A stretch of DNA of 32,000 nucleotides from Mycolicibacterium smegmatis (GTDB lineage: Bacteria > Actinomycetota > Actinomycetes > Mycobacteriales > Mycobacteriaceae). The stretch covers positions 1,620,001-1,652,000 of the forward strand of contig NZ_LN831039.1 of assembly GCF_001457595.1 (NCBI RefSeq), written 5' to 3'. The position numbers and the translations under genes are program-made. How positions within the stretch are numbered: the stretch's first letter is position 1; each line of letters opens with the position of its first letter. Under the pieces are notes generated by a model that saw nothing but the letters and a program-made list of their open reading frames with translations, was not told the DNA's origin and ran no database searches. Positions 897-19,636 of the stretch are shown in pieces.

Positions 897-1137
897 TGCC
901 TTGTGTCGCCGACGGCGGTCGCCGTGCTCTATCGGGCATTCGGAGTGGACGCTGTGCTGGATGGGTCGGATCGGAAAGTTCTTCGCAAACAGGTGACCGG
1001 TGTGTGTCGACCGCCGCTGGCCACCCCGCCGATGCGCGCGACATGGGCTTTCACTGTCGTCAGTTTCCCCGCAGCAACGCCCTCGCCGGTGTAGTCTCCG
1101 GGCGGATCTCCTTTGCGGAGACGGCACTTCGACGAGG

Positions 1138-4454: not shown

Positions 4455-6083
4455 TCAGAAGATGATGATCGCGACCACGGTCGACAGGACCAGCCCTGCC
4501 ATCACCGGCAGGAAACACTTGCGGGCCAGGCTGAGCACCGGCACCCGGGCGAAGCCGGCGACGGCCACCAGCGACGACCACGCCACGAGCGTGCCGCCAC
4601 CCGACCAGATGTTGCCCATCTGACCGATCGCGGCCAGCGTCGACGGATCCATGTGCACCACCGGACCCAGCGCCCCGGACAGCGACCCGGTCAACGGCAG
4701 GCCACTGAAACCCGAGCCCTCCAGGCCGGCGATGAGTCCGACGAACAGCACCGCGAACGACGTGACGACGGGGTTCGGCGACAAATGCGACTGGGCGGCG
4801 GTGATCAGGTCGAACAGGAACGCCGGACCGGTGGCGTCGGCGGGCATGCCGAGGATGGCCGCCGAGAAGTCACCGTTGCCGATGAAGAAGAACCCTGCGA
4901 TGGGCAGCACGATGCCCATCGCCTTGAACGCGAACACCAGACCGTCGACGACGTGTTGCGACGAGGTCTCCAGGAAGTTGCGCTTGTCGTTGGTGGCCGC
5001 GGCGGCGAACAGCAGCATGGCGGCCAGGCCACCCACGATCGCCGCGGCGTCGCCGCCCTGGAGCGGGGGCACCACATTGGTGAACTTGCCGAGCAGCAGA
5101 TAGACGATGAACGCCAGGTACACCAGCGGGACCAGGAGTGCGAACACCTTCGCCGACAGTTTCTTCGGTTCCTGCTCACCGGTCTCGGCCCCGGTGTCCA
5201 CTATGGCCTCCACGATCACCGCGGCCTTCACTGCCTTCACGGTGGCCACGGCCGTGTCGCCGTCAGAGCGGGTGGGGCCGTCGGTGACCGTGGGTCCGGC
5301 GGGAGCGGGTTTGCGTCCGTTGGAGCCGGCCGTGGCGCTCGGACTGCCCGCCGGCCCGCCGCTCGGGGAATCCTCATCGTCGTCGCCGACACCTCGGCGC
5401 TCGGCCGCGTTCTCCCATTCGACAAGCAGTTCCGGTGACGGGTTGCGCCACGTGCGACGCTGCATGACGTAGGTGATCCCCAGCGCGGTCAACCCCACGA
5501 TGAGGGACAGCACCATGGCCTTGTCGGCAACCGAATCAGGGTCGACGCCAGCGGCTTTCGCGGAGATGCCGGGTGCGACCTTGATGATGTAATCCGACGA
5601 CAGGGCCATGCCCTGACCGGCGATCGCGATGACCATGCCCACCGACATCGGCGAGAGGCCCGCGCGGATCGCGACCGGGATGAGCACCGCGCCCACGAGC
5701 GGGACGGCAGGGGTGGGCCAGAAGAACAGCGAGATCACGTAGGTGACGATCGCGAGCACGATGAAACTGCTCGTCCCGGCGCGCATGACGCGGCGGAACG
5801 GGGTGACCATCATGCGGTCGGCGCCCATCTCGCGCAGCGCGCCCAGCATGGCCGTGACGATCGCGATGATCAGGAAGATGTTGAACAGTTCCTTGGCCGC
5901 GGTCAGGCTCGCGTTGAATATCGCCGACAGGCCGGTGATCAGGCTGCCCGAGAACGCCCAGGCAGTGAGCAGCGTTGCAGTTACCGCAGGCACGACGATG
6001 TTCTTGCGGACCGCCATCGTGAGCAGGATGACCACGATTCCGGCGAGGTATATCCAGTGCGCCGCGGTGAGTGGGGTGTCCAA
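4455..6083 (-). CDS. Polytopic permease, paralogue 1 (ion-transporter-superfamily-like, GntP/CitMHS-type architecture; family not securely assigned)
   Basis: 542 aa and hydrophobic throughout, with two multi-helix halves split by an acidic Pro/Gly-rich loop (GDDDEDSPSGGPAGSPSATAGSNGRKPAPAGP...). TTG start at 6083 is preceded by GAGAGG 7 nt upstream. About 40-50 percent identical by eye to the ORF at 16620..18140; shared strings include AAHW.YL, IAGQGMALSSDYI, APAFLFD, GLP.TGSL and GGGTLV.WSSL. Confidence 0.8.
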   Translation of the reverse strand: MDTPLTAAHWIYLAGIVVILLTMAVRKNIVVPAVTATLLTAWAFSGSLITGLSAIFNASLTAAKELFNIFLIIAIVTAMLGALREMGADRMMVTPFRRVMRAGTSSFIVLAIVTYVISLFFWPTPAVPLVGAVLIPVAIRAGLSPMSVGMVIAIAGQGMALSSDYIIKVAPGISAKAAGVDPDSVADKAMVLSLIVGLTALGITYVMQRRTWRNPSPELLVEWENAAERRGVGDDDEDSPSGGPAGSPSATAGSNGRKPAPAGPTVTDGPTRSDGDTAVATVKAVKAAVIVEAIVDTGAETGEQEPKKLSAKVFALLVPLVYLAFIVYLLLGKFTNVVPPLQGGDAAAIVGGLAAMLLFAAAATNDKRNFLETSSQHVVDGLVFAFKAMGIVLPIAGFFFIGNGDFSAAILGMPADATGPAFLFDLITAAQSHLSPNPVVTSFAVLFVGLIAGLEGSGFSGLPLTGSLSGALGPVVHMDPSTLAAIGQMGNIWSGGGTLVAWSSLVAVAGFARVPVLSLARKCFLPVMAGLVLSTVVAIIIF

Positions 6084-6167
6084 AGCGGGACCTCTCGTTG
6101 AACTGCTGGTGGGCTGTGCAGTCAGATGCTGGAATGTTCGGCGCGGTCACGGCCTGGGTCAACGACA

Positions 6168-6205
6168 ACAGTGCACAGCCGGAACTGTCAGGCCCTGTGC
6201 ACTGT
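6168..6205. promoter_or_regulatory. 11-bp perfect inverted repeat built on GTGCAC cores; candidate operator or 5-prime UTR hairpin
   Basis: ACAGTGCACAG (6168-6178) and CTGTGCACTGT (6195-6205) are exact reverse complements 16 nt apart. They lie in the divergent region between permease 1 and the MFS gene. A near copy, ACAGTGCACA, occurs at 16488-16497 upstream of permease 2. Confidence 0.4.
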
Positions 6206-6304
6206 GTTCCGATCTTGTCGATCGCATGGCGGGGCGTTACGGACCTGTAAAGGCTGTTACGTTTGACCGGGAGTCGCCGTGCACACCGCGACGACCGGGA
6301 TTTT

Positions 6305-6320
6305 TGTGCACTTTGACCCG
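6305..6320 (+). promoter_or_regulatory. Island box copy 1: TGTGCACTTTGACCCG
   Basis: Exact TGTGC-N3-TTGAC, 142 nt upstream of the MFS start at ATG 6455. It is one of four exact copies, all intergenic and all in the same orientation as the downstream gene. Confidence 0.55.
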
Positions 6321-6454
6321 AGCCCCGCGTAATGCGTTGTGCACCTTCACTTGACGGGAACCGCCAACACCGGGCCTCGCGGTGGGAGAGTGGCGGGCAG
6401 AGACATCCACGCGCACTCACCGATTCGTCAGCCAACAGGATGGTTACGCACAGC

Positions 6455-7831
6455 ATGACCGATGTTCGCCAGACGCCGACTCCCGACGCCGCGCCGCCCA
6501 CCGGCGCGGATACCGGTACGCCGCTGGGGCTCGCGGCGCTGCTCGCGGGCACGCTCGTGGGCACGGTCAGCAACAACGTCGTGAACGTCCCACTCGACGC
6601 GATCATCGGTGAGTTCGATGCTTCTTTGGGAAACGGCGTTTTCGTCGTGGTGGGCTTCCTGGTCTGTTTCGCCGCGACCATACCGTTGGCCGGATGGTTC
6701 GGCGACCGCTTCGGGCGCAGGCGGGTGTACTGCGCGGCGCTGCTCGCCACGGCGGTATGTGCTGTCGGCGCGGCGACCGCACCGTCGTTGCCGCTGCTGA
6801 TCGCATGGCGGTCGGTGGGTGGGGTTGCTGCGGCTGCGTTCGCTCCGGCCGTGATGGGACTGCTCGCGTGGATGTTCTCCGGTGCGCGCCGTGGCCGGGC
6901 CATGGGCGCGTGGGCATCGGTCAACGGTATCGGGCAGGCCGTGGGCCCGACCCTGGGCGGACTGGTGGCCGATCACTGGGGATGGCGCTGGATCTTCGTT
7001 CCCCTGGTCCCTGTCGCGCTCGCGGGTTTTGTCGGCACGCTGCGCTACGTACCGAAGTTCCCCGGCGCGAGGATGCGCTTCGACCTGGCCGGGGCGGCCG
7101 CGCTGACGTTCGGTTCGGCGCTGCTGATGCTCGGATTGGCCATCGTGCCGCAACCGAACGTGAGCGGCTGGGCCGCGGCGGGATCGGTCGCGCTCGGTGT
7201 CGTCGCACTGGTCTGGTTCTGCTTTCACTGTGCGCGCGTGCCCAATCCGTTCGTCAACGTTCGCCTGGTCACCGAATCGCGTTTTGCCAGAAGTGCTCTC
7301 GCGGCGTTTGCGCAGATGTTCTGCCTCGGGGCCACTCTGCTGGCCGTGCCGCTGTACCTCGTGGCGCATGCGGTTTCGATATCGACGGCCGGCCTGGTGC
7401 TGTTCACGGTGCCCGTCGCGATGGCCGTGCTGGGCCCGGTGGTCGGCCGCCGTCAGGACCGCCTGGGCCCCAGGCTCGTGCTGCGTGTCGGGCTCGTCGT
7501 GTTGCTGGCCGTGCAGATCGCCCTGGCCGTCACGGTTGCCCAGGACCGCCTGCTGCTCGGGGTGCTGATTGCTGCACTGGTGACGGCCGGGGTGGGGATC
7601 GCGCTGGTGCAGACGCCGGCGGCCACCGGGGCCACCCGCTCACCCGCGGGTGCGGAGGGGACCGGACTGGGGCTGTTCAACCTGGTGCGGTTTGCCGGAT
7701 CGGCCTGCGGTGCAGCGTGGGTCGCGGTCGCACTCTCGGGGCCCGCGTCGTTCCCCGGGGTGTTCATCGCGTCCGCGGTGATCGTGGCCCTCGGGCTGGC
7801 CGGGACGTTCTTCGGTCCCGACCCGGCCTGA
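6455..7831 (+). CDS. MFS transporter (drug:H+ antiporter-like)
   Basis: From ORF 6332..7831. Start placed at ATG 6455 (MTDVRQTP...); ATG 6440 is possible. MFS motif A is present as GWFGDRFGRRRVY, and the hydrophobic helices are spaced across the whole length. Confidence 0.85.
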   Translation: MTDVRQTPTPDAAPPTGADTGTPLGLAALLAGTLVGTVSNNVVNVPLDAIIGEFDASLGNGVFVVVGFLVCFAATIPLAGWFGDRFGRRRVYCAALLATAVCAVGAATAPSLPLLIAWRSVGGVAAAAFAPAVMGLLAWMFSGARRGRAMGAWASVNGIGQAVGPTLGGLVADHWGWRWIFVPLVPVALAGFVGTLRYVPKFPGARMRFDLAGAAALTFGSALLMLGLAIVPQPNVSGWAAAGSVALGVVALVWFCFHCARVPNPFVNVRLVTESRFARSALAAFAQMFCLGATLLAVPLYLVAHAVSISTAGLVLFTVPVAMAVLGPVVGRRQDRLGPRLVLRVGLVVLLAVQIALAVTVAQDRLLLGVLIAALVTAGVGIALVQTPAATGATRSPAGAEGTGLGLFNLVRFAGSACGAAWVAVALSGPASFPGVFIASAVIVALGLAGTFFGPDPA

Positions 7832-9517
7832 TCAGCGAAAGCTCGCCTCGCGTTCGACCGCGGAGTGCACCTCGTCGAGCAGATCGAGGCGGATGGCCAG
7901 CCACACCGTGAACTGGTGCTCCGGATCGCGGACATCCATGCCGAGCATGCGGGAGATCCGGTCGAGCTTGGCGAGCATGGTGTTGCGGTGCACGTTGAGC
8001 GTGCGCGCGGTGGCGTTGATGTTGCCGCCCTCGGACAGGTACGCCTCCAGCGTCTCCAGCAGATCGGGTGAGGAACGCAACGGCCCCAACACGTCTCGCA
8101 CCAGCTGGCGGCTGTCCTCGGTCTCGGCGACCTGGGCCAGCACCGTGAAACCCCGCAACTGTTGATACGACGTCGCACCCGTGCGGTGCAGGCGCCGCGC
8201 GATACCGAGCGCAACCCTGGCCTCCCGGTAGCTCTCCCGGACCTCCCCGGCGCCGAGCGCCGGGCGGCCGTAGGCGACGGGCGCGGGAAGGCCCCGTCGC
8301 CGCTGCAGCTCGCCGGACATGGCCTCGGCATACTCGGCCATCTCGCTGCGCATGGCCGCAGCGTCCTCGCCGCGCAACGTGCGGACCACGACGAGCACGT
8401 CGCCGATCACCGTGACGTAGGCATGCACCGACGGGTGCGCCGCCACCCCGGCCGCGTACCGCGCCAGCCGCACCATCGGCGTCGTAGGACTGTCGGAAAC
8501 CCTGGGCAGCACACCGGGCGCCACGAAAACACCGAACCGCGCGTCGAGTTCGATGTCGTGATGCTCGGCGCGGGCGCGCATGTCGTGCTCGCTGGAGAAG
8601 CTGCCGTGCACCAGGGCCTGGACGAAATCACCCCGCGCGCGTTCCTCGGCCTCGTCGACGCTGCGTTGCCGCAACATCTCCGACCCGATGATCGCGGTGG
8701 CCTGTTCGGTGAGCACCTCGTGCCGCGCCAGATCGTGCTTGCTCGGGCCGTCGGCGTGATCGGGAGCCAACGTCGGGACCAGGACGGCCACCCAGCCCTC
8801 GAACGACTTGCCCAGCCGGATCGCGCTCGCCACACACGTCCATCTGCTGTCCTCCGGACCGGTGACCTGCTGCGTGCGCGTGTCGTGGCCGTCGTGGCGC
8901 CGCTCCGACGCCGGGAGGTCGGCGGCCAGCATCCGGCTCACCGAATCGGCCAGGGCGGCCACGGCTTCGGGGGGCAGGCCGTGGTGGGCCACCACATGAC
9001 CGCGGGCATCGAGTGCCACGGCGGGATTGCGCGCCAGGTTGGACACCTCGCGCACCAAAATCTGCAGGCCCGCGCCACGGTGGAACAGGCCGGCCAGGGT
9101 GGCGTGCACGTGCGTCGAGTAGCGCATGACGTGCACCTCCTGGCTGAGCGCGCGCTCGGCCAGCAGCCGGTTGAGGGCCGCGAAACCCACCGGGATGCCG
9201 AGTTCCACGACCACCAGCCCGGCGGGCAGCCCGCCCAGGTCCGGTGGGGCGACACCGTCGACCAGCAGCGTGGTCGCGCCCCTGGCGGCGAGCGCCGAAA
9301 GCGTCGAAGCGCGGCCCGTCAACGATTCGGGGCGCGCGTACACCGCCACCGCGTCCAGCCGATCATGTTGTGACAGAACCTCGTTGAGTGGAAGCACCCA
9401 GGTGAGTTCCTCGTCGAGCAGGTCTTCGCCCGCGACGATCCGCGAACCAGCCATGAGGGACTCGTCCAGAAGCCCGCGCACCGTCATCCGGCCGCTGTCG
9501 ATCGGTGGTGCCGTCAT
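7832..9517 (-). CDS. PucR-family transcriptional regulator
   Basis: 561 aa. The C-terminal PucR-type HTH reads NINATARTLNVHRNTMLAKLDRISRMLGMDVRDPEHQFTVWLAIRL. ATG 9517 is preceded by a GGGGG Shine-Dalgarno sequence. It is divergent from the glcG-like/oxygenase operons. Confidence 0.85.
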   Translation of the reverse strand: MTAPPIDSGRMTVRGLLDESLMAGSRIVAGEDLLDEELTWVLPLNEVLSQHDRLDAVAVYARPESLTGRASTLSALAARGATTLLVDGVAPPDLGGLPAGLVVVELGIPVGFAALNRLLAERALSQEVHVMRYSTHVHATLAGLFHRGAGLQILVREVSNLARNPAVALDARGHVVAHHGLPPEAVAALADSVSRMLAADLPASERRHDGHDTRTQQVTGPEDSRWTCVASAIRLGKSFEGWVAVLVPTLAPDHADGPSKHDLARHEVLTEQATAIIGSEMLRQRSVDEAEERARGDFVQALVHGSFSSEHDMRARAEHHDIELDARFGVFVAPGVLPRVSDSPTTPMVRLARYAAGVAAHPSVHAYVTVIGDVLVVVRTLRGEDAAAMRSEMAEYAEAMSGELQRRRGLPAPVAYGRPALGAGEVRESYREARVALGIARRLHRTGATSYQQLRGFTVLAQVAETEDSRQLVRDVLGPLRSSPDLLETLEAYLSEGGNINATARTLNVHRNTMLAKLDRISRMLGMDVRDPEHQFTVWLAIRLDLLDEVHSAVEREASFR

Positions 9518-9551
9518 GTCAACCCCCGTGCTGTGTGCCTGGTGCGCCCTC

Positions 9552-9595
9552 TGGTGCCTGTTATTCGATTACCGGACCCCTCGTCACAGGCACCA
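9552..9595. promoter_or_regulatory. 10-bp inverted repeat in the pucR / glcG-like divergent region; candidate autoregulatory operator
   Basis: TGGTGCCTGT (9552-9561) and ACAGGCACCA (9586-9595) are exact reverse complements 24 nt apart. The repeat directly abuts island box copy 2. CTGGTGC also occurs twice in direct orientation (about 9538 and 9551). Confidence 0.4.
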
Positions 9596-9611
9596 TGTGC
9601 AACTTGACCCG
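9596..9611 (+). promoter_or_regulatory. Island box copy 2: TGTGCAACTTGACCCG
   Basis: Exact TGTGC-N3-TTGAC, 110 nt upstream of ATG 9714. It is followed at +23 by CCGGTCATATTAACCAT (9627-9643), which is 13/17 identical to the box at the same offset after copy 3. A degenerate extra copy, TGTGCCCGTTGAT, lies at 9655-9667. Confidence 0.55.
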
Positions 9612-9713
9612 TCGCGGCGCATTTTTCCGGTCATATTAACCATCACCTGGTCGGTGTGCCCGTTGATAGACATGGCTCCGTCAGCCCGAGCTGCGAGAGA
9701 GCGAGAGAGACCA

Positions 9714-10160
9714 ATGCACAGAATTCACCGCATCACCCTCGACGACGCGTTGCCATTGCTGGCCGCGGGCCGTGCCAAAGCCGAGGAGATCGGGGTCAAG
9801 CAGACCCTGTGCATAGTGGACGACGGCGGCAATGTCATTGCGCTGCACCGGTTGCCGGGAGCCCGTCTGACCGGTGTGGACATCGCGATCGCGAAGGCCT
9901 TCACCGCCGCAGGTCACGAACGTGCCACCCACCTGTTCAACGAACCGCCCAACGGGCCCGCATTGCCCGGCAACGAGGCGTTCGGCATCAGCCATATGCT
10001 GCCCGGCAAGTTCGCGATCTTCGTCGGCGGGTTCCCGTTGGTCTACGACGGGCAGATCGTCGGGGGAGTGGGCATCAGCGGCGGCAACGGCGAGCAGGAC
10101 AAGGCCGTGGGGGCGGCGATCCTCGCCGAGTTCGAGGCGCTCACCGCCGCCCAGGTGTGA
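9714..10160 (+). CDS. GlcG/HbpS-like (DUF336) haem-binding-family protein
   Basis: Start placed at ATG 9714 (MHRIHRITLDDALPLLAAGRAKAEEIGV), preceded by the purine-rich GAGAGAGCGAGAGAGA. The DUF336 hallmark GGFPLVYDGQIVGGVGISGGNGEQDKAVG is present. The upstream part of ORF 9126..10160 is antisense to pucR and was rejected. Confidence 0.8.
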   Translation: MHRIHRITLDDALPLLAAGRAKAEEIGVKQTLCIVDDGGNVIALHRLPGARLTGVDIAIAKAFTAAGHERATHLFNEPPNGPALPGNEAFGISHMLPGKFAIFVGGFPLVYDGQIVGGVGISGGNGEQDKAVGAAILAEFEALTAAQV

Positions 10161-10166
10161 CCCGGA

Positions 10167-10182
10167 TGTGCAGGTTGACCCC
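10167..10182 (+). promoter_or_regulatory. Island box copy 3: TGTGCAGGTTGACCCC
   Basis: Exact TGTGC-N3-TTGAC, 104 nt upstream of ATG 10279. It is followed at +23 by CCGGTGATTGTGACCAT (10198-10214). Confidence 0.55.
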
Positions 10183-10278
10183 GCCGCGGGCGCCGGCCCG
10201 GTGATTGTGACCATGGCCCGCACCCCGAGGCGTCACTAATCTCCCTGGAACCCAAGCATTTTCAGCGAAAGGAAACTC

Positions 10279-10998
10279 ATGACCGAGCTACTGGGACGCG
10301 ATGAATTCCGTGCCGAACTGGAGAACGCGATCAAGGGGCGTGAAGCCAAGAACGCCTCGTTCTCCAAGGCATGGGCCGAGGGCAAGCTGACCAAGGATCA
10401 CTTCGCCCGCTGGGCCGAGAACCACTACCACTACGTGGGCCCGTTCGCCGACTACCTGGCCAACATCTACTCCAACACCCCCGACGAGTTCACCGGCGCG
10501 AAAGACTTCACGCTGCAGAACATGTACGAGGAGGAGCTGGCCGACATCCGCCACACCGACCTGCTCATCAAGTTCGGTGAGGCGTGCGGGACCACGCGTG
10601 AGCGCATCGAGGACCCGTCGAACATGAACCCGATCACGCGCGGTCTGCAGGCGTGGTGCTATGCGGTCTCGCAGCGCGAGCACTTCGTGGTCGCCACCGC
10701 GGCGCTGGTGGTGGGCCTGGAATCCCAGGTGCCCAGCATCTACACCAAGCAGATCGTGCCCCTGCGCGAGGTGTACGGCTTCACCGAGGACGAGATCGAG
10801 TTCTTCGACCTGCACATCACGTCCGACGTCGTGCACGGCGAGCGCGGATACCAGATCGTGCTCGACCACGCCGACACCCCGCAGTTGCAGCAGCGCTGCC
10901 TGCAACTGGTGCGCTGGGGCGCCGAGATGCGCTTCTCCTACACCAAGGGCCTCTACGACTACTACGTCGCACCGGATCTCCAAGCCGCAGGCGTCTGA
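10279..10998 (+). CDS. Haem-oxygenase-fold (PqqC/TenA/CADD-like) protein with a complete putative diiron ligand set
   Basis: 239 aa and collinear with PqqC-like proteins (N-terminal LLGRDEFRAELE..., C-terminal tail LYDYYV). Candidate ligands are E85 (10531), H92 (10552), E148 (10720), H179 (10813), D183 (10825) and H186 (10834). This gives E-x6-H ... E ... H-x3-D-x2-H, the spacing I recall for the CADD diiron site. RBS AAAGGA lies before the ATG. Confidence 0.75.
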   Translation: MTELLGRDEFRAELENAIKGREAKNASFSKAWAEGKLTKDHFARWAENHYHYVGPFADYLANIYSNTPDEFTGAKDFTLQNMYEEELADIRHTDLLIKFGEACGTTRERIEDPSNMNPITRGLQAWCYAVSQREHFVVATAALVVGLESQVPSIYTKQIVPLREVYGFTEDEIEFFDLHITSDVVHGERGYQIVLDHADTPQLQQRCLQLVRWGAEMRFSYTKGLYDYYVAPDLQAAGV

Positions 10999-11043
10999 TC
11001 CCTGATCCCTGAAACCCCGCCGCCTCGACAGAAAGGTTGTGCT

Positions 11044-11394
11044 GTGACTGCGAACTGGGTTGCGGTGGCGAGCCGTAAAGAGCTCGCCCGCCGCCGCAAA
11101 CTCCGCGTGGAACTCGACGGTCTGGCCATCGCGCTGTTCGAGGCGGCGGGCCGGGTGTACGCATTCGCCGACGCATGCGTGCACCAGGACCGGTCGCTGG
11201 TCAAAGGCACCCTGCTGCACGGCAAGGTGATCTGCCCCGGCCACCAATGGCAGTTCGACCTGGAGACCGGATACGAGGAGAGCCAAGGCCGCTGCCAGCC
11301 CACCTACGCGGTGCGCGTCGACGACGACACCGTCTACGTGGACCCCACCGCGCGGATGTCACCCGTGACCGCAGGAGAGGAAGCCAACGCATGA
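11044..11394 (+). CDS. Rieske [2Fe-2S] ferredoxin 1 (small, NirD/HcaC-like)
   Basis: 116 aa. Rieske ligands are CVH (C-x-H) and CPGH (C-x-x-H) within CPGHQWQFDLETG. There is no catalytic oxygenase domain. GTG start with AAAGG upstream. The stop overlaps the next start (ATGA at 11391-11394). Confidence 0.85.
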   Translation: MTANWVAVASRKELARRRKLRVELDGLAIALFEAAGRVYAFADACVHQDRSLVKGTLLHGKVICPGHQWQFDLETGYEESQGRCQPTYAVRVDDDTVYVDPTARMSPVTAGEEANA

Positions 11395-12617
11395 CCGACC
11401 GCACCTTCGTGACCGTGGGGGCCGGACAGACCGCCGCGGTGGCAGCACGCACGCTGCGCCGCCGCGGGTTCGACGGCCGCATCATCCTGGTCGGTGACGA
11501 ACCGCACGCGCCGTACCAGCGGCCACCGCTGTCGAAGGAATTCCTCTGCGACACGGCCGCATCCGATGACCTGTGGATCCTGCCCGAGAAGTGGTGCGCC
11601 GACAACGGCGTCGAGATCCGCACCGGGGCCGAGGTCACCGGCGTCGATGCCGCCACGGGCACCGTCGAGATCGCCGGACAGGCACCGGTGCGCGCCGACG
11701 CGGTGCTGTTCGCCACGGGCGGGCGGCCCCGCCGCTTGCCGGTGCCCGGCCCCCGGCCAGAACTCGTGCACTACCTGCGCACTCTCGATGACGCACGACG
11801 CCTGCACGACGCCCTGGCATCCGGATGCCGTCTCGGTGTCATCGGCGCCGGCTTCGTCGGGCTCGAAATCGCCGCCACCGCAGTGGGTCTCGGCGCTTCG
11901 GTGACCGTGCTGGAAGCCGCGCCGATGCCGCTGGGCACCGTCGTCGGGTCACGCGTCGGCGCCGAGATCGTGCGCCTGCACCGCGGCAACGGGGTCGAAC
12001 TGCTCACCGGCGTGGCCGTGAACGGGGTACGCACCGACGCCGAGGGCGTCGTCGTCAGCACCGGCGCGCAGGACCTGCGCTTCGACGCCGTCGTGATCGG
12101 CATCGGCATCACCCCCAACACCGCTGTGGCCGAGGCCTCCGGGCTCGCGGTCGACGACGGCATCGTCGTCGACGCCCAGGGTCGCGCATCGATACCCAAC
12201 ATCTACGCCGCGGGCGACGTCGCGCGCCGCTACTCCGAACGCGCCGGAAAACACGTCCGCATCGAGCATTTCGACAACGCCAACCGGCAGGGCGCCGCGG
12301 TCGCCAACGCCATGCTGGGCCGCGACGCCGTCAACGACGACGCGCCGTGGTTCTGGTCCGACCAGTACGAGCACAACCTGCAACTGCTGGGCGAGGCCAC
12401 CGGCAACCTGGTGATCCGCGGCGACGTCGGCGAATTCGAGTTCACCGCGTTCTACGTCGACACCGACGACACGCTGCGCGGCGTGTTCACCGTCGACCGG
12501 GGTGAGGACGTCATGGTGGGCCGCGAACTGCTCGGCCGCCGCATCCCGCGCGCCGTCCTGGAAGACGACGACGCCGATTTGTGGGAACTCGTCGACACCG
12601 AGGAGGTGGCACAGTGA
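11391..12617 (+). CDS. FAD-dependent NAD(P)H:ferredoxin reductase (BphA4/putidaredoxin-reductase type)
   Basis: Begins MTDRTFVTVGAGQTAAVAARTLRRRGFDGRIILVGDEPHAPYQRPPLSK (FAD GxGxxA fold plus the RPPLSK motif). A second dinucleotide fold is GVIGAGFVGLEIAA, followed by AAGDVA. Start ATG 11391 was chosen within ORF 11175..12617 by translational coupling. Confidence 0.88.
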   Translation: MTDRTFVTVGAGQTAAVAARTLRRRGFDGRIILVGDEPHAPYQRPPLSKEFLCDTAASDDLWILPEKWCADNGVEIRTGAEVTGVDAATGTVEIAGQAPVRADAVLFATGGRPRRLPVPGPRPELVHYLRTLDDARRLHDALASGCRLGVIGAGFVGLEIAATAVGLGASVTVLEAAPMPLGTVVGSRVGAEIVRLHRGNGVELLTGVAVNGVRTDAEGVVVSTGAQDLRFDAVVIGIGITPNTAVAEASGLAVDDGIVVDAQGRASIPNIYAAGDVARRYSERAGKHVRIEHFDNANRQGAAVANAMLGRDAVNDDAPWFWSDQYEHNLQLLGEATGNLVIRGDVGEFEFTAFYVDTDDTLRGVFTVDRGEDVMVGRELLGRRIPRAVLEDDDADLWELVDTEEVAQ

Positions 12618-14056
12618 CTGTCGAGGGAGCCAACTTCATCGACGGGCAGTGGATCCCGGCCGCGTCGGGACGCACCTTCGCGCGTCACAACCCGGCCGAC
12701 CCCGACGATCTCGTCGGGGTCTTCCCGGCCTCCGACGGCGTCGACGTGCGCACCGCCGTCGACGCGCTCGACAAGGCCGCCCCCGAATGGGCCGCCACGC
12801 CGCCCGAACGCCGTGCGGCGATCCTGGAAGCCGCTGCCGTGCAACTGGAATCACGCGCAGCGGAGTTGATCGCCGAATTGATCCGCGAAGAGGGCAAGAC
12901 CACCGCCGAGGCCACCATGGAGGTGAGCCGGACCCCGGCGAACCTGCGCTTCTACGCCGGCGAGGCGCTGCGGTCCACGGGCACCACCTACCCCGCACCG
13001 GGGGAGGGTCTGGTCTACACGCTGCGTGAGCCCGTCGGCATCGTCGGCGCCATCACACCGTGGAACTTCCCGTTCAACATCCCGTCACGCAAACTCGGGC
13101 CGGCGCTCGCGGCAGGAAATCCGGTGCTGTACAAGCCCTCCGAACTCACCCCGCTGATGGGGCAGCGTCTGGTCGAGGCGTTGTTGGACGGTGGGCTGCC
13201 GCCCTCGGCGCTCGCGCTGGTCCAGGGCGACGGCGTGGCGGGTGCCGCGGTCGCCGCGGATCCACGCGTCGCAGCGGTCACCTTCACCGGGTCGACAGCC
13301 GTCGGCCGTGCGATCCACCAGCAGGTCGGACCCCAGCGCCGCGTCCAACTGGAGATGGGCGGCAAGAACCCCGTGGTGGTCGCCGGGGACGCCGACCTCG
13401 ACGCCGCGGCCGCCCTCATCGTCAAAGGCGCGTTCGGGCTCAGCGGACAGGCCTGCACCGGGACCAGCCGCGTGATCGCGGTCGACGAGATCCACGATGC
13501 GCTGCTCGACCGCGTGGTGGCCAAGGCCGACGCGCTGCAGGTCGGGCCCGGCAATCAGCCCGGTGTGCACATGGGTCCGCTGGCCAGCGCGGCCCAGAGG
13601 GAAAAGTTCCTGCACTACGTGCACGCCGGGATCACCGAGGGCGCCACCCTGCGCTGCGGCGGCACCACGGTGGGCGATCACGGATTCTTCGTCCGCCCGG
13701 CGGTTTTCGCCGACGCGCTGCCGACCATGCGCATCGTCACCGAGGAGGTGTTCGGGCCGCTGGTCGCGTTCCAGCGCGCGGCATCCCTCGACGAGGCCGT
13801 CGCGCTGGCCAACGCCACCGAGTACGGACTGGCGGCCTCGATCGTCACGTCGGACCTCGCCGCGGCGACACGGTTCGCCCGGCAGTCGAAGACCGGCCTG
13901 GTCAAGATCAACCAGCCGACCACGGGCATGGCGATGAACGCGCCCTTCGGCGGCTACAAGGCGTCGAGCACCCAGACCTTCAAGGAACAGGCCGGGCCGA
14001 CGCTCATGGAGTTCTACACGCTCGAGAAGACCGTCTACCTCACCCCGGCCCTCTGA
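12614..14056 (+). CDS. NAD(P)+-dependent aldehyde dehydrogenase
   Basis: GTG 12614 follows AGGAGG (12601-12606) and overlaps the reductase stop (GTGA). Contains FIDGQWIP, the ALDH glutamate box LEMGGKNP and the catalytic cysteine context GQACTGTSR. Confidence 0.9.
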   Translation: MTVEGANFIDGQWIPAASGRTFARHNPADPDDLVGVFPASDGVDVRTAVDALDKAAPEWAATPPERRAAILEAAAVQLESRAAELIAELIREEGKTTAEATMEVSRTPANLRFYAGEALRSTGTTYPAPGEGLVYTLREPVGIVGAITPWNFPFNIPSRKLGPALAAGNPVLYKPSELTPLMGQRLVEALLDGGLPPSALALVQGDGVAGAAVAADPRVAAVTFTGSTAVGRAIHQQVGPQRRVQLEMGGKNPVVVAGDADLDAAAALIVKGAFGLSGQACTGTSRVIAVDEIHDALLDRVVAKADALQVGPGNQPGVHMGPLASAAQREKFLHYVHAGITEGATLRCGGTTVGDHGFFVRPAVFADALPTMRIVTEEVFGPLVAFQRAASLDEAVALANATEYGLAASIVTSDLAAATRFARQSKTGLVKINQPTTGMAMNAPFGGYKASSTQTFKEQAGPTLMEFYTLEKTVYLTPAL

Positions 14057-14070
14057 ACACAGGAGCTGCA

Positions 14071-14424
14071 ATGGAATTCACCCGAGTCGCCAGATCCGGT
14101 CAGGTGCCCGAGGGCATCGTGCGACGGTTCTTCGCGGGCGAGTACGAGTTCGCCGTGGCCCGCCTCAACGGCAAGGCCTACGCGACGTCCAACTACTGCA
14201 CGCATCTGGACTGCATGCTCTCGTCGGGCAAGCTCGTCGACGACGGCATCGGATGCTCGTGCCACGGAAGTGCATTCGACCTCGAGACCGGTGAGCCCAT
14301 CTGCCCGCCCGCCACGGTCGCGATCAAGACCTACCCGGTCGAGGAACGCGACGGCGAGATCTTCGTCGGTGTCGAGCCGGGGGAGATGCCCGTCGGACCG
14401 CGGCGGCGACGCAAGGGGGCGTGA
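14071..14424 (+). CDS. Rieske [2Fe-2S] ferredoxin 2 (BphF/TodB-like)
   Basis: 117 aa. Ligands are CTH ... CSCH (CTHLDCMLSSG, CSCHGSAFDLETGE). AGGAG RBS is present. The stop overlaps the GGT-family gene start (GTGA at 14421-14424). Confidence 0.85.
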   Translation: MEFTRVARSGQVPEGIVRRFFAGEYEFAVARLNGKAYATSNYCTHLDCMLSSGKLVDDGIGCSCHGSAFDLETGEPICPPATVAIKTYPVEERDGEIFVGVEPGEMPVGPRRRRKGA

Positions 14425-16025
14425 GCCAGGTGCAGCGGCCGCCGACACTGTCCACCGGCGCGATGGTCAGCTCGAGCCATCCCGCCGCCAGCTTCGCCGG
14501 GGCGCGCGTACTCGCCGACGGCGGCAACGCGATCGACGCGACCCTGGCGATGGCCGCGGTCACGTGGCTGACGTTGCCCGGTCAATGCGGCATCGGCGGC
14601 GACGCGTTCGTCGTCGTGGCCGAACCCGACGGGCGGGTGTGGACGGTCAACGGGTCCGGCTTCGGCCCCGACGGCGGCACCACGGACTTCTATCGCGACA
14701 TTCAGGGCGAACGATCTGGTATTCCCCTGACCGGTGCGCTCGGTGTCGCGGTTCCCGGCGCCCCGGCGGCATTGGCCGCGTTGCACTCCCACGGCGCACG
14801 CATGTCGCTGGCGGAGCTGTGGGAACCGGCGGCGCGCATGGCCGAGAACGGACTGGCGTGCTCGGCCAAGACCGTCACCGACGTGCGGGAGACGTTCGAC
14901 GCGATCCGCGCCGACGACGGTCTGGCGGCCGTGTACACGCCCGACGGCGCCGTCCCCGCGGTGGGGCAGCGGTTGCCGCAACCCGACCTGGCCCGCACCA
15001 TCCGCCGGCTCGCCACCGCGCCCGGTGATTTCTACACCGGCGAGTTCGCCGAACGCGCCGTGGCGGTGCTGTGCGCGGCAGGCGCCCCGTTCAGCGGCGA
15101 CGAATGGGCCGCCGGTGCCGTCGTCGCTCCCGAGGCCCCGCTCACGGGCGGCTACGCCGGTGCGACGATTCACCAGACGCCACTACCCACCCCCGGCTGG
15201 ATGGTGTTGCAGCAGGCCGCGCTGTGCGACGGAACCCTCGGTGCGGCACCGTGGCTGGGCGCCGAGGCCATCGACCGCATGGCCCGGGCAGCTCGGCTGG
15301 CGTTCCAAGACCGGTTCGCGCTGTGCGGATCCGACGGCGCGGGTGTGCGAGAGGTGCTGGACGCCAACCGGATCGCCGAACAGCGGCGTGCTCTGGATGC
15401 GTCGGCGGAACAGCGGATGTCGTTCAGCGTCGCCGGCGGTGACACGACGTGCACGGTCGCCGTCGACGCCGACGGGCGTGCCGTGTCGTTCATCCATTCC
15501 CTGGGTTTCACGTTCGGGGCCAAGCTCACGGTGCCCGGAACCGGCGTCGTCCTCAACAACCGGTTGGGCCGCGGTGCCTACCTGATCCCCGGGCATCCCA
15601 ACGAGGTCGCGCCGCGCCGCAAACCACTGAACACCCTCAACGCCTGGATCGCCACCGGCGCCGATGGGGAACTGCTCGCCCTCGGCTCCATCCCCGGCGG
15701 CGATGGTCAGGTGCAGTGGAACATGCAGTTGCTCTCGCACCTGTTCGACCACGGGCTGGACCCGGCCGAGGCGGTCAGCGCACCGCGTTTCACGGTGTTC
15801 CCCGGATCCGACGCCGACGTCATCGGCAGGCCCGACGAATTGCGCGTCGAGGCAAGGATTCCCGACGACGTCCGGTCGGAGTTGCAGGACATGGGGCATC
15901 GCGTCGTGGTGCAACCGGATTTCGGCGCCGGCGGAAGCGCCCAGGTGATCCGCCGCGACGCGCGCGGTGTGCTCAGCGGCGCGGCCGACCCGCGTCAGGA
16001 AGGGATCGCGATCGGTGTCGAGTGA
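14421..16025 (+). CDS. Gamma-glutamyltransferase-family Ntn hydrolase
   Basis: 534 aa. The N-terminal region reads SSHPAASFAGARVLADGGNAIDATLA. The autoprocessing/nucleophile threonine context is GGDTTCTVAVDADGRAVSFIHSLG. Substrate cannot be read from sequence, because this family includes non-glutamyl amidohydrolases. Confidence 0.85.
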   Translation: MSQVQRPPTLSTGAMVSSSHPAASFAGARVLADGGNAIDATLAMAAVTWLTLPGQCGIGGDAFVVVAEPDGRVWTVNGSGFGPDGGTTDFYRDIQGERSGIPLTGALGVAVPGAPAALAALHSHGARMSLAELWEPAARMAENGLACSAKTVTDVRETFDAIRADDGLAAVYTPDGAVPAVGQRLPQPDLARTIRRLATAPGDFYTGEFAERAVAVLCAAGAPFSGDEWAAGAVVAPEAPLTGGYAGATIHQTPLPTPGWMVLQQAALCDGTLGAAPWLGAEAIDRMARAARLAFQDRFALCGSDGAGVREVLDANRIAEQRRALDASAEQRMSFSVAGGDTTCTVAVDADGRAVSFIHSLGFTFGAKLTVPGTGVVLNNRLGRGAYLIPGHPNEVAPRRKPLNTLNAWIATGADGELLALGSIPGGDGQVQWNMQLLSHLFDHGLDPAEAVSAPRFTVFPGSDADVIGRPDELRVEARIPDDVRSELQDMGHRVVVQPDFGAGGSAQVIRRDARGVLSGAADPRQEGIAIGVE

Positions 16026-16446
16026 GCAGACCGGCGCACCGGCGCCGCAGGGCGACTACCGGCCCGCGCTGTTGCATGACGGTGTCGTCTACACCGCGGG
16101 CATGACACCGCGCCGCGACGGTGAACTCGTGCTGCGCGGCGTCGTCGGGGTCACGGTGTCGGCCGGGCAGGCCTTCGACGCGGCCGGCATCGCCGCGGGC
16201 AACGCGCTGGCCGCGGCACGCTCGGTGCTGCCCGACGGTGCAACGGATGTCCGCTGCCTGCGCATGACCGTGTACATCGCGTGCGCTCAGTCGTTTCACG
16301 AGCTCTCCGCTGTGGCCGACGGTGCCTCGGCCGCGCTGGGCGCTGAGCTCGGCGGATCAGGCGTTCCGGTGCGCGCGGCCATCGGCGTGCAGACCCTGCC
16401 GTCGGGTGCGCCCGTCGAGGTGGATCTCATCGCTGCGGTGGTGTAG
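16015..16446 (+). CDS. RidA/YjgF/L-PSP-family protein (reactive enamine/imine deaminase family)
   Basis: Start placed at GTG 16015 (VSSEQTGAPAPQGDYRPALLHDGVVYTAGMTPR), with GAAGGGA 9 nt upstream and an 11-nt overlap with the GGT-family gene. Size of about 143 aa and the N-terminal Y..A...G.....G pattern fit the family. Confidence 0.7.
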   Translation: MSSEQTGAPAPQGDYRPALLHDGVVYTAGMTPRRDGELVLRGVVGVTVSAGQAFDAAGIAAGNALAAARSVLPDGATDVRCLRMTVYIACAQSFHELSAVADGASAALGAELGGSGVPVRAAIGVQTLPSGAPVEVDLIAAVV

Positions 16447-16514
16447 GTGCGGTTGTTCTGGTTGGCGGGTGTGAAAAGAAAAGGGGCACAGTGCACATGG
16501 ATCGGCAGCAACCA

Positions 16515-16530
16515 TGTGCGGTTTGACGCC
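16515..16530 (+). promoter_or_regulatory. Island box copy 4: TGTGCGGTTTGACGCC
   Basis: Exact TGTGC-N3-TTGAC, 97 nt upstream of the permease 2 start. It is preceded by ACAGTGCACA (16488-16497), which resembles the inverted-repeat arms at 6168-6205. Confidence 0.55.
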
Positions 16531-16619
16531 GGTGTCTTCCGGCAAATCGGTCGAATTGCGGAAAATGGTGAGCACCTTAGGGTTACATGAATTCAAGGTA
16601 GCCAGGCAGTTCTAGTCGA

Positions 16620-18140
16620 TTGGATGTGAACGCGGTGTCCGCAGCTCATTGGGTGTACCTGCTCGGTCTTGTGGTGTTGATCGGCACAGTGGTGGCCAAG
16701 AAGAACGTCATCGCGCCTGCGCTCATCGCCACATTCCTCACCGGATGGGTCTACCAGGGCAGCGTGACCACCGGGCTGGGAGCCATCTTCAACGCCGCGA
16801 TCGCCGGAACCCGCGAGTTACTGCCGATTTTCATCATCATCGCCCTCGTCACCGCGATGCTCGGTGCCATGCGTGCGCTGGGCTCCGACGCCATCATGAT
16901 CCGTCCGCTGCGCGGGTTGTTCCGCAACGGGCACATCTCCTACGTGTTGCTCGCTGTCGTGACGTTCCTTCTGTCGCTGGCGTTCTGGCCGACACCCGTG
17001 CTGCCGCTGATCGCGGCGATCCTGCTCCCGGCCGCCGTCCGCGCCGGCCTACCGCTGCTCGGCGCCGCACTCGCGATCGCCATCGCAGGCCAGGGCATGG
17101 CGCTGAGTTCGGACTACATCATGGGCGTGGCGCCTGCGCTCTCGGCCGAGGGCGCCGACGTTCCGGCCCGGTTGATCGCCGACCGTGCGACGGTCATCGC
17201 CCTGATCGCGGGCGCCGTGGCCTTGGCGATCGTGTATCTTCGCGACGTGCGCACCAAGGTGCGTGCCCCGGGCGATGGTGACGACATCGGTTCGGCTGCT
17301 TCGGGTTTCGCGCAGGATCCCGACTCGCCGGAGCCGAGTTCCGGCCCGATCGCCGGGCCTGGTGGTCAGGCAGACGGCGGCGCCTTGGCCACCCTCAGCG
17401 CGCCTGCGGCGACCGACGTCGAAGCGGCTCCGGGGCGCAAGGCCCTGCTGATCGCTGTCGCAGTGCCCGCACTGTTCGCCGGCCTGCTCGTCTTCATGCT
17501 CCTCGGGCGGTTCACCACGGTCATCCCCGACATCGACGAAGGTCTCGGCGCTCCGCTGGTTGGCGGCACCGCTGCTCTCGCGCTCGTGGCAATCGCTCTG
17601 ATCAGCAACCGCAAACGCTGGCTCGACGACGTCGGCGAGCACTTCACCGAAGGCATCGGCTTCTCGTTCCGCACCATGGGCATGGTCATCCCGGTCGCGG
17701 GATTCGTCTACATCGGCCTGGCCGACTACTCCGCGGGCATCCTGGGCCTGCCGGAAGGCGCCGAGGCGCCGGCCTTCTTGTTCGACGCCGTCGGCGCGGT
17801 ACAGGACCACATCCCGGCGGCCCCGGCCTTCGCGGCCTTCGCGATGTTGATCGTCGGCATGCTGATCGGGCTGGACGGCAACGGCTGGCCCGGTCTCCCG
17901 TTCACGGGTTCGCTGGCGTCGACTCTCGGGGACGGGACGTCCGACGTCGCCACCTTGGCGGCGATCGCGCAGAACGGTGCCAGCTGGACCGGGGGCGGCA
18001 CGCTGGTGATCTGGTCGTCACTGATCGTCGTCGCGGGTCTTACCGGGGTGTCGGTGATGGACCTGGCCCGACGCCTGTTCATCCCGGTCGTCACAGGACT
18101 TGTGGTGGCCACCGGCATCGCGACGGTGGTGCTGCTGTGA
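16620..18140 (+). CDS. Polytopic permease, paralogue 2 (same family as 4455..6083)
   Basis: 506 aa. TTG start at 16620; in-frame GTG 16626 is an alternative. It has the same two-half architecture as permease 1, with a divergent acidic/Pro-rich central loop (GDGDDIGSAASGFAQDPDSPEPSSGPIAGPGGQADGG). The stop overlaps the amidase start (GTGA at 18137-18140). Confidence 0.8.
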   Translation: MDVNAVSAAHWVYLLGLVVLIGTVVAKKNVIAPALIATFLTGWVYQGSVTTGLGAIFNAAIAGTRELLPIFIIIALVTAMLGAMRALGSDAIMIRPLRGLFRNGHISYVLLAVVTFLLSLAFWPTPVLPLIAAILLPAAVRAGLPLLGAALAIAIAGQGMALSSDYIMGVAPALSAEGADVPARLIADRATVIALIAGAVALAIVYLRDVRTKVRAPGDGDDIGSAASGFAQDPDSPEPSSGPIAGPGGQADGGALATLSAPAATDVEAAPGRKALLIAVAVPALFAGLLVFMLLGRFTTVIPDIDEGLGAPLVGGTAALALVAIALISNRKRWLDDVGEHFTEGIGFSFRTMGMVIPVAGFVYIGLADYSAGILGLPEGAEAPAFLFDAVGAVQDHIPAAPAFAAFAMLIVGMLIGLDGNGWPGLPFTGSLASTLGDGTSDVATLAAIAQNGASWTGGGTLVIWSSLIVVAGLTGVSVMDLARRLFIPVVTGLVVATGIATVVLL

Positions 18141-19636
18141 GCGAGGTGCACGCAGTGCCTGGTCGCACCGTCGCCGAGACGGCCGCCCTGGTGCGTTCGG
18201 GTGAGATGAGCGCCCACGCCGTCGTGCAGGAGGCCCTCGACCGGATCGAGGAGTGCGATGGTGCGCTCGGCGCGTTCGTCCACGTCGACGCCGAGGGCGC
18301 ACTGCAGCGGGCGAGCGCGGTCGACCGGCTGGTGGCAGACGGCATCGATCCCGGGCCGATGGCCGGAATCCCCTTGGGCGTCAAGGAACTTCATCCGGTG
18401 GACGGCTGGCCGTTCGCGATGGGCAGCACGCTGTACGCCGAGCGGATCGCCGACCACACCTGCACCCTGGTGCAACGTGCCGTCTCGGCGGGTGCGGTGC
18501 CCATCGGCGTGACGGCCTCACCGGAGTTCGGGCGGGCGTCTTTCACCGCGTCGGCCGTGCACGGCGTGACCCGCAATCCGTGGAATCTCGATCTCACCCC
18601 CGGCGGGTCGAGCGGGGGGTCGGCGGCCGCGGTGGCCGCGGGCATGGTGCCGATCGCTACGGGCACCGACGGTGCGGGCTCGTTGCGTATCCCGGCGTCG
18701 TACTGCGGTCTGGTGGGGTTCAAGGCCACATACGGCCTGGTCCCGCGCGGGCCCCGGCATGTCGGTGCGGCCGACAACGACCACTACGGCGTGCTCACAC
18801 GCACCGTGCGCGACACCGCCCGTTTTCTCGACTGCGTTTGTGGGATCGATCCGTTCGACCGGGCCTCACTGCCCGCGTCGACCCGGTTCGAAGACCACCT
18901 GACCGCCGATCTGCGTGGGCTTCGCGTCGCCTTCACACCCGATCTGGGCAATGCGCCCAGCGACACACAGGTCGTGGAGGTGGTGCGGACAGCGGCCGAG
19001 AAATTCGTCGCCGCCACCGGTGCCCAGTCGGTGCCCGCTCAAGTGTGCGTCGATCCGGACTGCGGCGCCGCCTACCGCACACTCTCGGCGCCCGACGTGC
19101 ACACACACCTACGTGATGCGCCGGCCGGGCGGAACATCCACCCGACGCTGCGCGGTTACCTGGACGCCGCGGGCGCCATGACCGCCGAGACGCTCGCCGA
19201 CGCCCACGAGGCACGCGCCCGTCTCGTCGCGACGATGGCCGAGGCATTCGAGCGTTTCGACCTGCTCCTGCTGCCCGCCACGCAGGTCCCGGCGTTCGCG
19301 GCCGAGGGTCCCATGCCCACCGAGATCGCGGGGCAGAAGGTGGACCACTGGGGTGCGTTGGCCGTGACCTTGCCGTTCAACCTGACCGGTCAGCCGGCCG
19401 TGTCGGTGCCGGCAGGCGTCGTCGGCGGTGCTCCGGTCGGCCTGCAGATCGTGGGCCGTCGTCACGCCGACGCACTGGTGCTCGCGGCCGCCTCGGCGGA
19501 TGCTGCGCTGACCTGCTGGTCGGACCGGTTCCGCGAATGTGAAACCGCTGCGAGAAAATGGCCGCTGGATCGCGCTGAGTTCACACTCGCGGCGCGGTTT
19601 CGCGTCAGGTTCACACTCGCGATCCCGGTCCGGTGA
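18137..19636 (+). CDS. Amidase-signature (AS) family amidase
   Basis: Contains the AS motif GGSSGGSAAAVAAGMVPIATGTDGAGSLRIPASYCGLVGFKATYG and the upstream lysine context IPLGVKE. The last 35 or so codons run through a repeat cluster (19532-19621), so the true C-terminus is uncertain. Confidence 0.88.
   Translation: MSEVHAVPGRTVAETAALVRSGEMSAHAVVQEALDRIEECDGALGAFVHVDAEGALQRASAVDRLVADGIDPGPMAGIPLGVKELHPVDGWPFAMGSTLYAERIADHTCTLVQRAVSAGAVPIGVTASPEFGRASFTASAVHGVTRNPWNLDLTPGGSSGGSAAAVAAGMVPIATGTDGAGSLRIPASYCGLVGFKATYGLVPRGPRHVGAADNDHYGVLTRTVRDTARFLDCVCGIDPFDRASLPASTRFEDHLTADLRGLRVAFTPDLGNAPSDTQVVEVVRTAAEKFVAATGAQSVPAQVCVDPDCGAAYRTLSAPDVHTHLRDAPAGRNIHPTLRGYLDAAGAMTAETLADAHEARARLVATMAEAFERFDLLLLPATQVPAFAAEGPMPTEIAGQKVDHWGALAVTLPFNLTGQPAVSVPAGVVGGAPVGLQIVGRRHADALVLAAASADAALTCWSDRFRECETAARKWPLDRAEFTLAARFRVRFTLAIPVR
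19532..19621. repeat. Nested direct and inverted 13-17 bp repeats at the island / ribosomal-operon junction
   Basis: GTTCACACTCGCG occurs twice in direct orientation (19579-19591 and 19609-19621, 30-bp period). CGCGAATGTGAAAC (19532-19545) is its near reverse complement. GAAACCGC (19541-19548) pairs with GCGGTTTC (19594-19601). Confidence 0.6.

Follow-up and report, generated by a model that had tools for sequence, protein, structure and literature searches.

Conserved paired 13-bp sites in the promoters of a mycobacterial gene island and their probable recognition by a PucR-family regulator

We analyzed a stretch of 32,000 nucleotides of the Mycolicibacterium smegmatis chromosome (contig NZ_LN831039.1, positions 1,620,001 to 1,652,000; hereafter the window, numbered from its first letter), which contains a presumed catabolic gene island encoding a PucR/CdaR-family regulator (7832-9517). 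A previous sequence-only reading of this DNA had pointed to a box, TGTGC-N3-TTGAC, upstream of four transcription units and had proposed it as the recognition site of that regulator. Here we report that the sites exist, are conserved and fixed in their spacing, are enriched in the island promoters, and co-occur with the regulator gene. The boxes are likely to be operators at which a transcription factor specific to the island acts, and the PucR-family protein of 7832-9517 is the most probable candidate.

Conserved sites in the island promoters

An exhaustive scan of both strands of the window for TGTGCNNNTTGAC (TGTGC-N3-TTGAC) gave four matches, at 6305, 9596, 10167 and 16515, all on the plus strand, exactly as the sequence-only reading had listed them. 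The scan found only these four, in agreement with the claim that no copy lies in coding DNA or off the island, and an A precedes three of the four, as had been described. According to the gene map derived here, all four are intergenic, as claimed, and lie upstream of the plus-strand starts of an MFS transporter gene (6455), a glcG-like gene (9714), the haem-oxygenase-like (HO-like) gene (10279) and the permease 2 gene (16620), although the distances are ~105-150 nt here instead of the 97-142 nt given before. The mean number of TGTGCNNNTTGAC copies expected by chance was 0.02 (the rough estimate had been ~0.03), and none of 100 dinucleotide-preserving shuffles gave four. The string TGTGCA was found nine times in 859 bp of island promoters versus 11 times in the other 31 kb.

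Orthologous loci were collected by a protein-guided scan with one genome per species, which yielded 57 loci with a regulator orthologue, from Mycolicibacterium, Rhodococcus and Gordonia. Note that a 58th fetched locus (L058) showed a 35% match to the helix-turn-helix (HTH) region only and was not counted as an orthologue; the fetched sequence of the 58 loci amounts to 1.17 Mb. Phylogenetic footprinting, a check that had been suggested for the box, was run on the 57 islands, and the footprints sit at the same promoter positions. Alignments anchored on the box were made for the pucR-glcG and glcG-HO-like intergenic regions, and were ungapped over ~105 bp in the three genera. GTGCA was present at the aligned position in 55 of 56 orthologues at glcG, the sole exception being ATGCA in L044, and in 52 of 52 at the HO-like gene. 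The TTGAC half, on the other hand, was kept in only 18/56 (glcG) and 6/52 (HO-like), and the full TGTGC-N3-TTGAC pattern in 18/56 and 5/52, respectively. Mean column identity rounds to 1.00 for GTGCA, as compared with 0.44-0.57 for the adjacent spacers. The TTGAC half elsewhere reads TAACC, GTAACC, TGTAC (Rhodococcus) or TAGTC (Gordonia), and the HO-like promoters of Rhodococcus and Gordonia have C in place of the first T of TGTGC. The element first drawn as TGTGC-N3-TTGAC is therefore a conserved and specific cis-element, but its core is GTGCA and its TTGAC half is degenerate; judging from the alignments, it is best described as a 13-bp pseudo-palindrome of 5-3-5 form, GTGCA-N3-TGACC. In the whole 1.17 Mb, the exact box occurred 30 times, and every copy lay on the coding strand of the island, at the promoter position of glcG, the HO-like gene or MFS and nowhere else.

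The box is a real site, but it is a member of a phased pair or triplet rather than a stand-alone element, and its GGTCA-N3-TGACC partners had been missed. Specifically, a second conserved 13-mer, with 72-79% column identity, lies exactly 32 bp downstream of the glcG and HO-like boxes. This partner (the C site) is a perfect GGTCA-N3-TGACC palindrome in many orthologues, and some Rhodococcus HO-like C sites read GGCCA-N3-TGGCC, altered symmetrically on both arms; in the boxes themselves (the B sites), 3-4 of the five symmetric positions match. A conserved -10-like block follows another 31-32 bp downstream of both partner sites. All five island promoters, including that of permease 1, have two sites at 32-33 bp centre-to-centre, and sometimes three. 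The sites and putative promoter elements are as follows, with scores (in bits) from the weight matrix described below.

6306-6318, plus strand: MFS distal operator GTGCA-CTT-TGACC (box 1, 6305-6317); 23.8 bits; orthologous promoters have a GTGCA box in the same place
6339-6351, plus strand: MFS proximal operator GTGCA-CCT-TCACT, 33 bp from the distal one; 15.8 bits
6386-6391, plus strand: putative MFS -10, GAGAGT (GACAGT in orthologues), in the conserved block GGTGAGACAGTG
6164-6176, minus strand: permease-1 proximal operator GTGCA-CTG-TTGTC; conserved in three genera
6197-6209, plus strand: permease-1 distal operator, GTGCA-CTG-TGTTC as read on this strand, 33 bp from the proximal one; 15.4 bits
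6133-6162, minus strand: putative permease-1 core promoter, with -35 TTGACC (6157-6162), an 18-nt spacer and -10 AACATT (6133-6138)
6116-6128, plus strand: GTGCA-GTC-AGATG in the permease-1 leader, a possible extra operator; conserved
9563-9576, plus strand: conserved block ATTCGATTACCGGA, 33 bp upstream of the glcG B site
9597-9609, plus strand: glcG distal operator B, GTGCA-ACT-TGACC (box 2, 9596-9608); 21.5 bits
9629-9641, plus strand: glcG proximal operator C, GGTCA-TAT-TAACC, 32 bp from B; 20.1 bits
9667-9672, plus strand: putative glcG -10, TAGACA (other genera have TAGAAA or TTACAT); its distance to the operators is constant
10168-10180, plus strand: HO-like distal operator B, GTGCA-GGT-TGACC (box 3, 10167-10179); 20.1 bits
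10200-10212, plus strand: HO-like proximal operator C, GGTGA-TTG-TGACC, 32 bp from B; 21.3 bits
10237-10242, plus strand: putative HO-like -10, TAATCT (TAACGT, TAGGCT or TAGTCT in orthologues), a TANNNT at fixed distance
16484-16496, plus strand: permease-2 upstream operator GGGCA-CAG-TGCAC; 16.7 bits on the minus strand
16516-16528, plus strand: permease-2 middle operator GTGCG-GTT-TGACG (box 4, 16515-16527), 32 bp from the upstream site
16549-16561, plus strand: weak, low-confidence candidate for a third permease-2 site, GGTCG-AAT-TGCGG, 33 bp downstream of the middle one

Three variants of the box had also been noted; all are present, but they are not equivalent to one another. The N8-spaced variant (6338-6355) contains the second operator of the MFS promoter as its core, and the N10-spaced variant on the minus strand (6177-6156) consists of the permease-1 proximal operator plus the -35 hexamer; both are conserved in orthologues. 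The variant at 9655-9667 was rejected as a site: it coincides in part with the glcG -10 block, and orthologues do not keep its TGTGC but only GTTGATAGACAT, the probable -10 region. In the fourth box, GTGCG replaces the otherwise invariant GTGCA, and the permease-2 orthologues keep the same deviation; they also have GTGCA-CCA-GAATC near the position of the candidate third site. The 9563-9576 block reads TACCAGAG in Rhodococcus and ATACCAAGG in Gordonia. It may serve as a third operator; alternatively, it may be the -10 region of the divergent pucR gene (reverse complement TAATCG), and in that case autoregulation from the same operator array would be implied.

The operators lie upstream of the conserved -10-like blocks. 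The start sites are predicted from these blocks; a consensus promoter scan returned nothing, and canonical -35 hexamers appear from the sequence to be poor or absent at the island promoters. Relative to the predicted starts, the proximal operator is centred at about -44 in the permease-1, glcG and HO-like promoters and the distal one at about -76 or -77. At permease 1, the invariant TTGACC directly adjoins the proximal operator, and the two hexamers and their spacing are conserved in Mycolicibacterium and Rhodococcus, although the pair is too weak for the consensus scan. The leader element at 6116-6128 scores as an operator and lies 48 bp from the proximal operator, at a secondary peak of the site distances. 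The RNA fold of the permease-1 leader was no more stable than that of shuffled sequence (z = 0.88). Between the permease-1 and MFS promoters (6210-6300), the short blocks TTGTCG, GGTTTC and GTAACG are conserved in most loci and partly rearranged in the window; the operator model does not account for them.

We next consider the specificity of the sites. It was examined with a weight matrix for which only the B sites of the glcG and HO-like promoters served as the training set, at a threshold of 14 bits or more. Of the matches in all the fetched sequence, 213 fell within the island promoter intervals, which span 52.8 kb, and 18 fell outside them. Counted by island boundary, 221 matches lie inside islands (213 of them in promoter intervals) and 10 in 483 kb outside, of which four are island promoters at the mis-delimited loci L041 and L054. 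The density of sites in island promoters was ~300 times that of the 0.48 Mb of flanking DNA, and the permease-1/MFS region, which was not used for training, showed 2-3 matches per locus. A metagenome scan with a 20-base bipartite pattern is a weak guide to specificity: it gave 10 matches, two of which are orthologous glcG promoters, and the other eight contigs showed no homologue of any island gene by tblastn. Note that the window also has a lone, unpaired site of the partner type, CGGTGATGTTGTCCA, at ~30535-30549 on the plus strand (18.6 bits), within coding sequence and well away from the island. Its sequence is that of the HO-like C site in another group of mycobacteria; it probably arose by chance.

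Two explanations that would deprive the box of a specific regulator can be weighed on these data. The first, that the box is a core promoter element in which TTGAC serves as the -35 with an upstream extension, for a housekeeping or an alternative sigma factor, is very improbable. TTGAC fits the -35 consensus, and the permease-1 promoter has its invariant TTGACC 18 nt from AACATT, just downstream of the operator. However, this separate hexamer looks like a real -35 at permease 1 only; no -10 is found at 16-18 nt from any of the four boxes, TTGAC is kept far less often than GTGCA at both aligned promoters, and the element is palindromic and paired at 32-33 bp. The TTGAC of the four boxes was accordingly rejected as a -35, as no sigma-70 pair in the consensus scan uses it and the half is poorly conserved. 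The sequence-only reading had itself raised a general promoter element as the case to look for, and this is not what the 483 kb of flanks show: other promoters there lack the element, those of ribosomal-protein operons included. The second, that the boxes are chance matches or passive leftovers of promoter duplication that are now functionless, is strongly disfavoured. Permeases 1 and 2 are indeed paralogues with similar upstream layouts, but the four copies contrast with the 0.02 expected by chance, and GTGCA was kept in all but one of 108 aligned sites in three genera while the flanks diverged to ~45-55% identity.

The PucR-family protein as probable binder and its proposed mode of action

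The regulator matches Pfam HTH_30 (PF13556) at residues 486-543 with an E-value of 5.1e-22, and GGDEF_2 with an E-value of 1.2e-12. It falls below the cut-offs of the AdeR, CdaR, Rv1453 and PmfR equivalogs (52.6 bits against 700 for AdeR). Its gene lies between the MFS gene and glcG, divergently from the latter, an arrangement kept in the 57 loci of three genera, and among the conserved genes of the island it alone encodes a DNA-binding protein. The predicted recognition helix, VHRNTML, is invariant in 53 orthologues even though overall identity drops to 52%, in agreement with the invariant DNA core. Given this co-localization and the precedents in the family, the PucR protein is most probably the binder. 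The sequence-only reading had claimed one regulon comprising the MFS gene, both permeases and the enzyme operons; this is supported, as the conserved boxes tie these genes, together with the glcG-like gene, into a unit that travels with pucR in the 57 loci.

In Corynebacterium glutamicum, GabR is a PucR-type activator of gabTDP that is encoded divergently from its target; it forms an octamer, and two inverted repeats between -87 and -23 are both required for its strong binding (PMC7652997). Each island operator is a 13-bp pseudo-palindrome whose half-sites, GTGCA or GGTCA, stand 3 bp apart, and five promoters would be under control, namely those of permease 1, the MFS gene, the glcG-like gene, the HO-like operon and permease 2/amidase. 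The paired operators face the same side of the DNA, because 32-33 bp is about three helical turns, and an oligomer of the regulator would occupy both operators of a promoter. The bound oligomer would then most likely activate RNA polymerase once the substrate of the island is present, as GabR does at gabTDP. The identity of the binder, the sign of regulation, the -10 and start positions and the oligomeric state are what we infer. A more elaborate form of this model is tentative: a large oligomer, not a simple dimer at one box, would hold two or three 13-bp operators (32-33 bp phasing, with rigid spacing over ~100 bp), the single pucR-glcG array would drive both divergent promoters, and the regulon would serve an undescribed catabolic pathway. 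As part of the same tentative model, that pathway would be centred on an HO-like iron enzyme, served by a Rieske ferredoxin and a reductase of its own, and would further comprise an amidase, a GGT-family hydrolase and a transporter family that no Pfam model covers; the first two enzymes show 90-97% identity across the three genera.

Several observations weigh against recognition by PucR or against activation. About six matches of at least 14 bits outside the islands are unexplained, and the extra-island sample of ~8 kb per genome is compatible with a few dozen sites genome-wide. Distances of 32 bp (115 pairs) and 33 bp (36 pairs) are the most frequent between neighbouring sites, with a sharp peak, but the 32-bp peak comes largely from the training promoters, so that only the 33-bp pairs are independent. 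The permease-2 middle operator scores below 10 bits owing to its A to G change, and the MFS proximal operator lies at about -53, as opposed to about -44 elsewhere, so that the distances are unequal. Furthermore, all positions relative to +1 depend on predicted -10s, some of them weak (TAGACA, GAGAGT). Finally, the conserved GTGCA over the predicted permease-1 start suits repression rather than activation.

The off-island matches, together with a non-island sample limited to flanks, would also fit a regulator encoded elsewhere, such as a global CRP/GlxR-like protein, with PucR recognizing something else. The boxes do begin with TGTG like a CRP half-site. However, the boxes each differ from TGTGA-N6-TCACA at four positions, a match to it with two mismatches or fewer is absent from all island promoters, and the half-site spacing is unlike that of CRP (GTG-N7-CAC versus GTG-N8-CAC). 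The ~300-fold enrichment in island promoters is also at odds with an outside regulator, as is the fact that the sites follow the island into other chromosomal contexts in Rhodococcus and Gordonia. We therefore regard this explanation as improbable.

Somewhat less improbable, though still unlikely, is that the same protein uses the same sites chiefly for repression, or that it has a dual role and is relieved by an inducer. Bacillus subtilis PucR both activates and represses (PMC7652997), the GTGCA-type element of the permease-1 leader would lie at about +1 to +11 of the predicted start, and the pucR-glcG operators could overlap the pucR promoter. On the other hand, four promoters have their sites upstream of -10-like blocks and lack a canonical -35, which is the usual layout of activator-dependent promoters, and the characterized PucR-family members other than the dual B. 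subtilis PucR are activators (PMC7652997).

Comparison with known regulators

The proposed activation by PucR at paired operators shares with GabR a divergent regulator gene, a C-terminal HTH of the PucR type, and tandem inverted repeats over ~65 bp that would likewise lie upstream of the promoter. However, the GabR repeats are 21 bp long and of other sequence, whereas the island sites are 13-bp 5-3-5 pseudo-palindromes; GabR is without the GGDEF-like domain that the island regulator has; and GabR serves one promoter, as compared with the five predicted here, where binding, too, is a prediction.

One structure match to the island regulator was MabR (PDB 9f80), the fasII regulator (Rv2242) of M. 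tuberculosis and Rhodococcus. MabR binds a palindrome upstream of the -35 and has been proposed as a class I activator. It is likewise from Mycobacteriales and has the same architecture of GGDEF-like domain and HTH_30, and the palindrome upstream of the -35 would be a further shared trait. However, it uses a single site and governs another regulon, and its similarity to the island regulator is limited to the HTH (E-value 1e-8); no site of the MabR motif TTTTGT-N9-ACAAAT was found here.

The founder of the family, B. subtilis PucR, which controls purine catabolism, similarly uses one motif for several catabolic and transport operons. It differs in that its box, WWWCNTTGGTTAA, is not palindromic and in that it is a dual activator/repressor; a search of the window for WWWCNTTGGTTAA gave no match with one mismatch or fewer. 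PutR and AdeR of B. subtilis, whose inverted repeats are 17 bp and 24 bp as cited in PMC7652997, are pathway-specific activators with inverted repeats upstream of their target promoters, but their motifs are other ones and their targets single.

Island genes, orthologous loci and significance

The gene map is based on third-position GC content and on Pfam/NCBIfam searches. The island and its neighbours are as follows.

1000-3498: sulfatase
3541-4431: sulfatase maturation enzyme
4455-6083, minus strand: permease 1, a membrane protein without a Pfam family; predicted target
6455-7831, plus strand: MFS transporter, DHA2/EmrB-like, with a confirmed gene call of 458 aa; predicted target
7832-9517, minus strand: PucR/CdaR-family regulator, 561 aa, with GGDEF_2 and HTH_30; proposed binder
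9714-10160, plus strand: GlcG/HbpS-like protein; predicted target
10279-16446, plus strand: enzyme operon; predicted target
16620-19636, plus strand: operon of permease 2 (16620-18140) and amidase (18137-19636); predicted target
from 19826: rplN

The enzyme operon encodes the HO-like iron enzyme, a Rieske ferredoxin, a ferredoxin reductase, an aldehyde dehydrogenase, a second Rieske protein, a GGT-family hydrolase and a RidA-like protein; the Rieske ferredoxin and the ferredoxin reductase are separate genes in different frames. No island protein reached an equivalog cut-off in the NCBIfam search, in which the aldehyde dehydrogenase came closest to the model of 2,5-dioxovalerate dehydrogenase and the iron enzyme to that of CADD/PqqC. 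Permeases 1 and 2 are 45% identical and polytopic, with two hydrophobic halves joined by a linker rich in Pro, Gly and Asp. Neither matched a Pfam or NCBIfam model even at E-values up to 5, and they may represent an undescribed transporter family. A literature search turned up PucR-family precedents and no paper on this gene cluster.

By locus scan, the regulator is 68-85% identical to the window protein in Mycolicibacterium, ~62% in Rhodococcus and ~54% in Gordonia. As examined by tblastn, the order permease 1, usually MFS, pucR, glcG, HO-like operon is common to all 57 loci, and permease 2 and the amidase are found in some mycobacteria only. The mycobacterial island lies between sulfatase genes and rplN, and other chromosomal contexts surround it in Rhodococcus and Gordonia. 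Across the three genera (L001-L057), the GlcG-like protein is 82-97% and the HO-like enzyme 90-97% identical, as compared with only 52-85% for the neighbouring regulator; on these identities, the two proteins point to unusually strong constraint or to recent horizontal spread. The MFS protein of the window is only 37-52% identical to those at the same position elsewhere, and the operators upstream are nonetheless kept, which suggests from the sequences that the transporter was replaced beneath a conserved promoter.

Some loci depart from the common layout around the HO-like gene. In two Rhodococcus loci (L043 and L044), the gap between glcG and the HO-like gene is ~50 nt and free of a box, so that the glcG promoter is presumably the only one to drive the enzyme operon there. 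In Rhodococcus artemisiae (L041, reverse-complemented, ~12300-12380), about four tandem copies of the ~16-nt unit CTGCACACCACTGACT lie upstream of the HO-like box; each contains TGCACAC, one has an extra C, and the repeat looks like an operator-like element amplified in tandem. Many HO-like genes of L019-L057 have long leaders (150-200 nt) with conserved segments such as CGAAAC...TTTCG, which could be an undescribed leader element; the leader in the window is short. No Rfam family was matched when the window and three loci were scanned for riboswitches and leaders.

Taken as a whole, the boxes allow a solid prediction of a regulon. The system is of a familiar rather than a new type, and it leaves the general concepts of gene regulation unchanged; what the boxes provide is an operator motif and a regulon, both new, for a family of regulators of known mode of action. 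To the box as first described, the refined model adds the GTGCA core, the 5-3-5 symmetry, the 32-33 bp phasing, the GGTCA partners and permease 1. The PucR family is abundant in Actinobacteria, and to our knowledge few binding sites are known for it. The present work offers a testable operator model for one of its members, in terms of sequence, symmetry, spacing and position. The predicted five-promoter regulon would join two uncharacterized transporters, an MFS exporter-like protein, a GlcG-like protein and an unusual set of enzymes into one function, and gives a handle for discovery of the inducer or substrate, for example by reporter fusions, and for inducible expression or a biosensor in mycobacteria.

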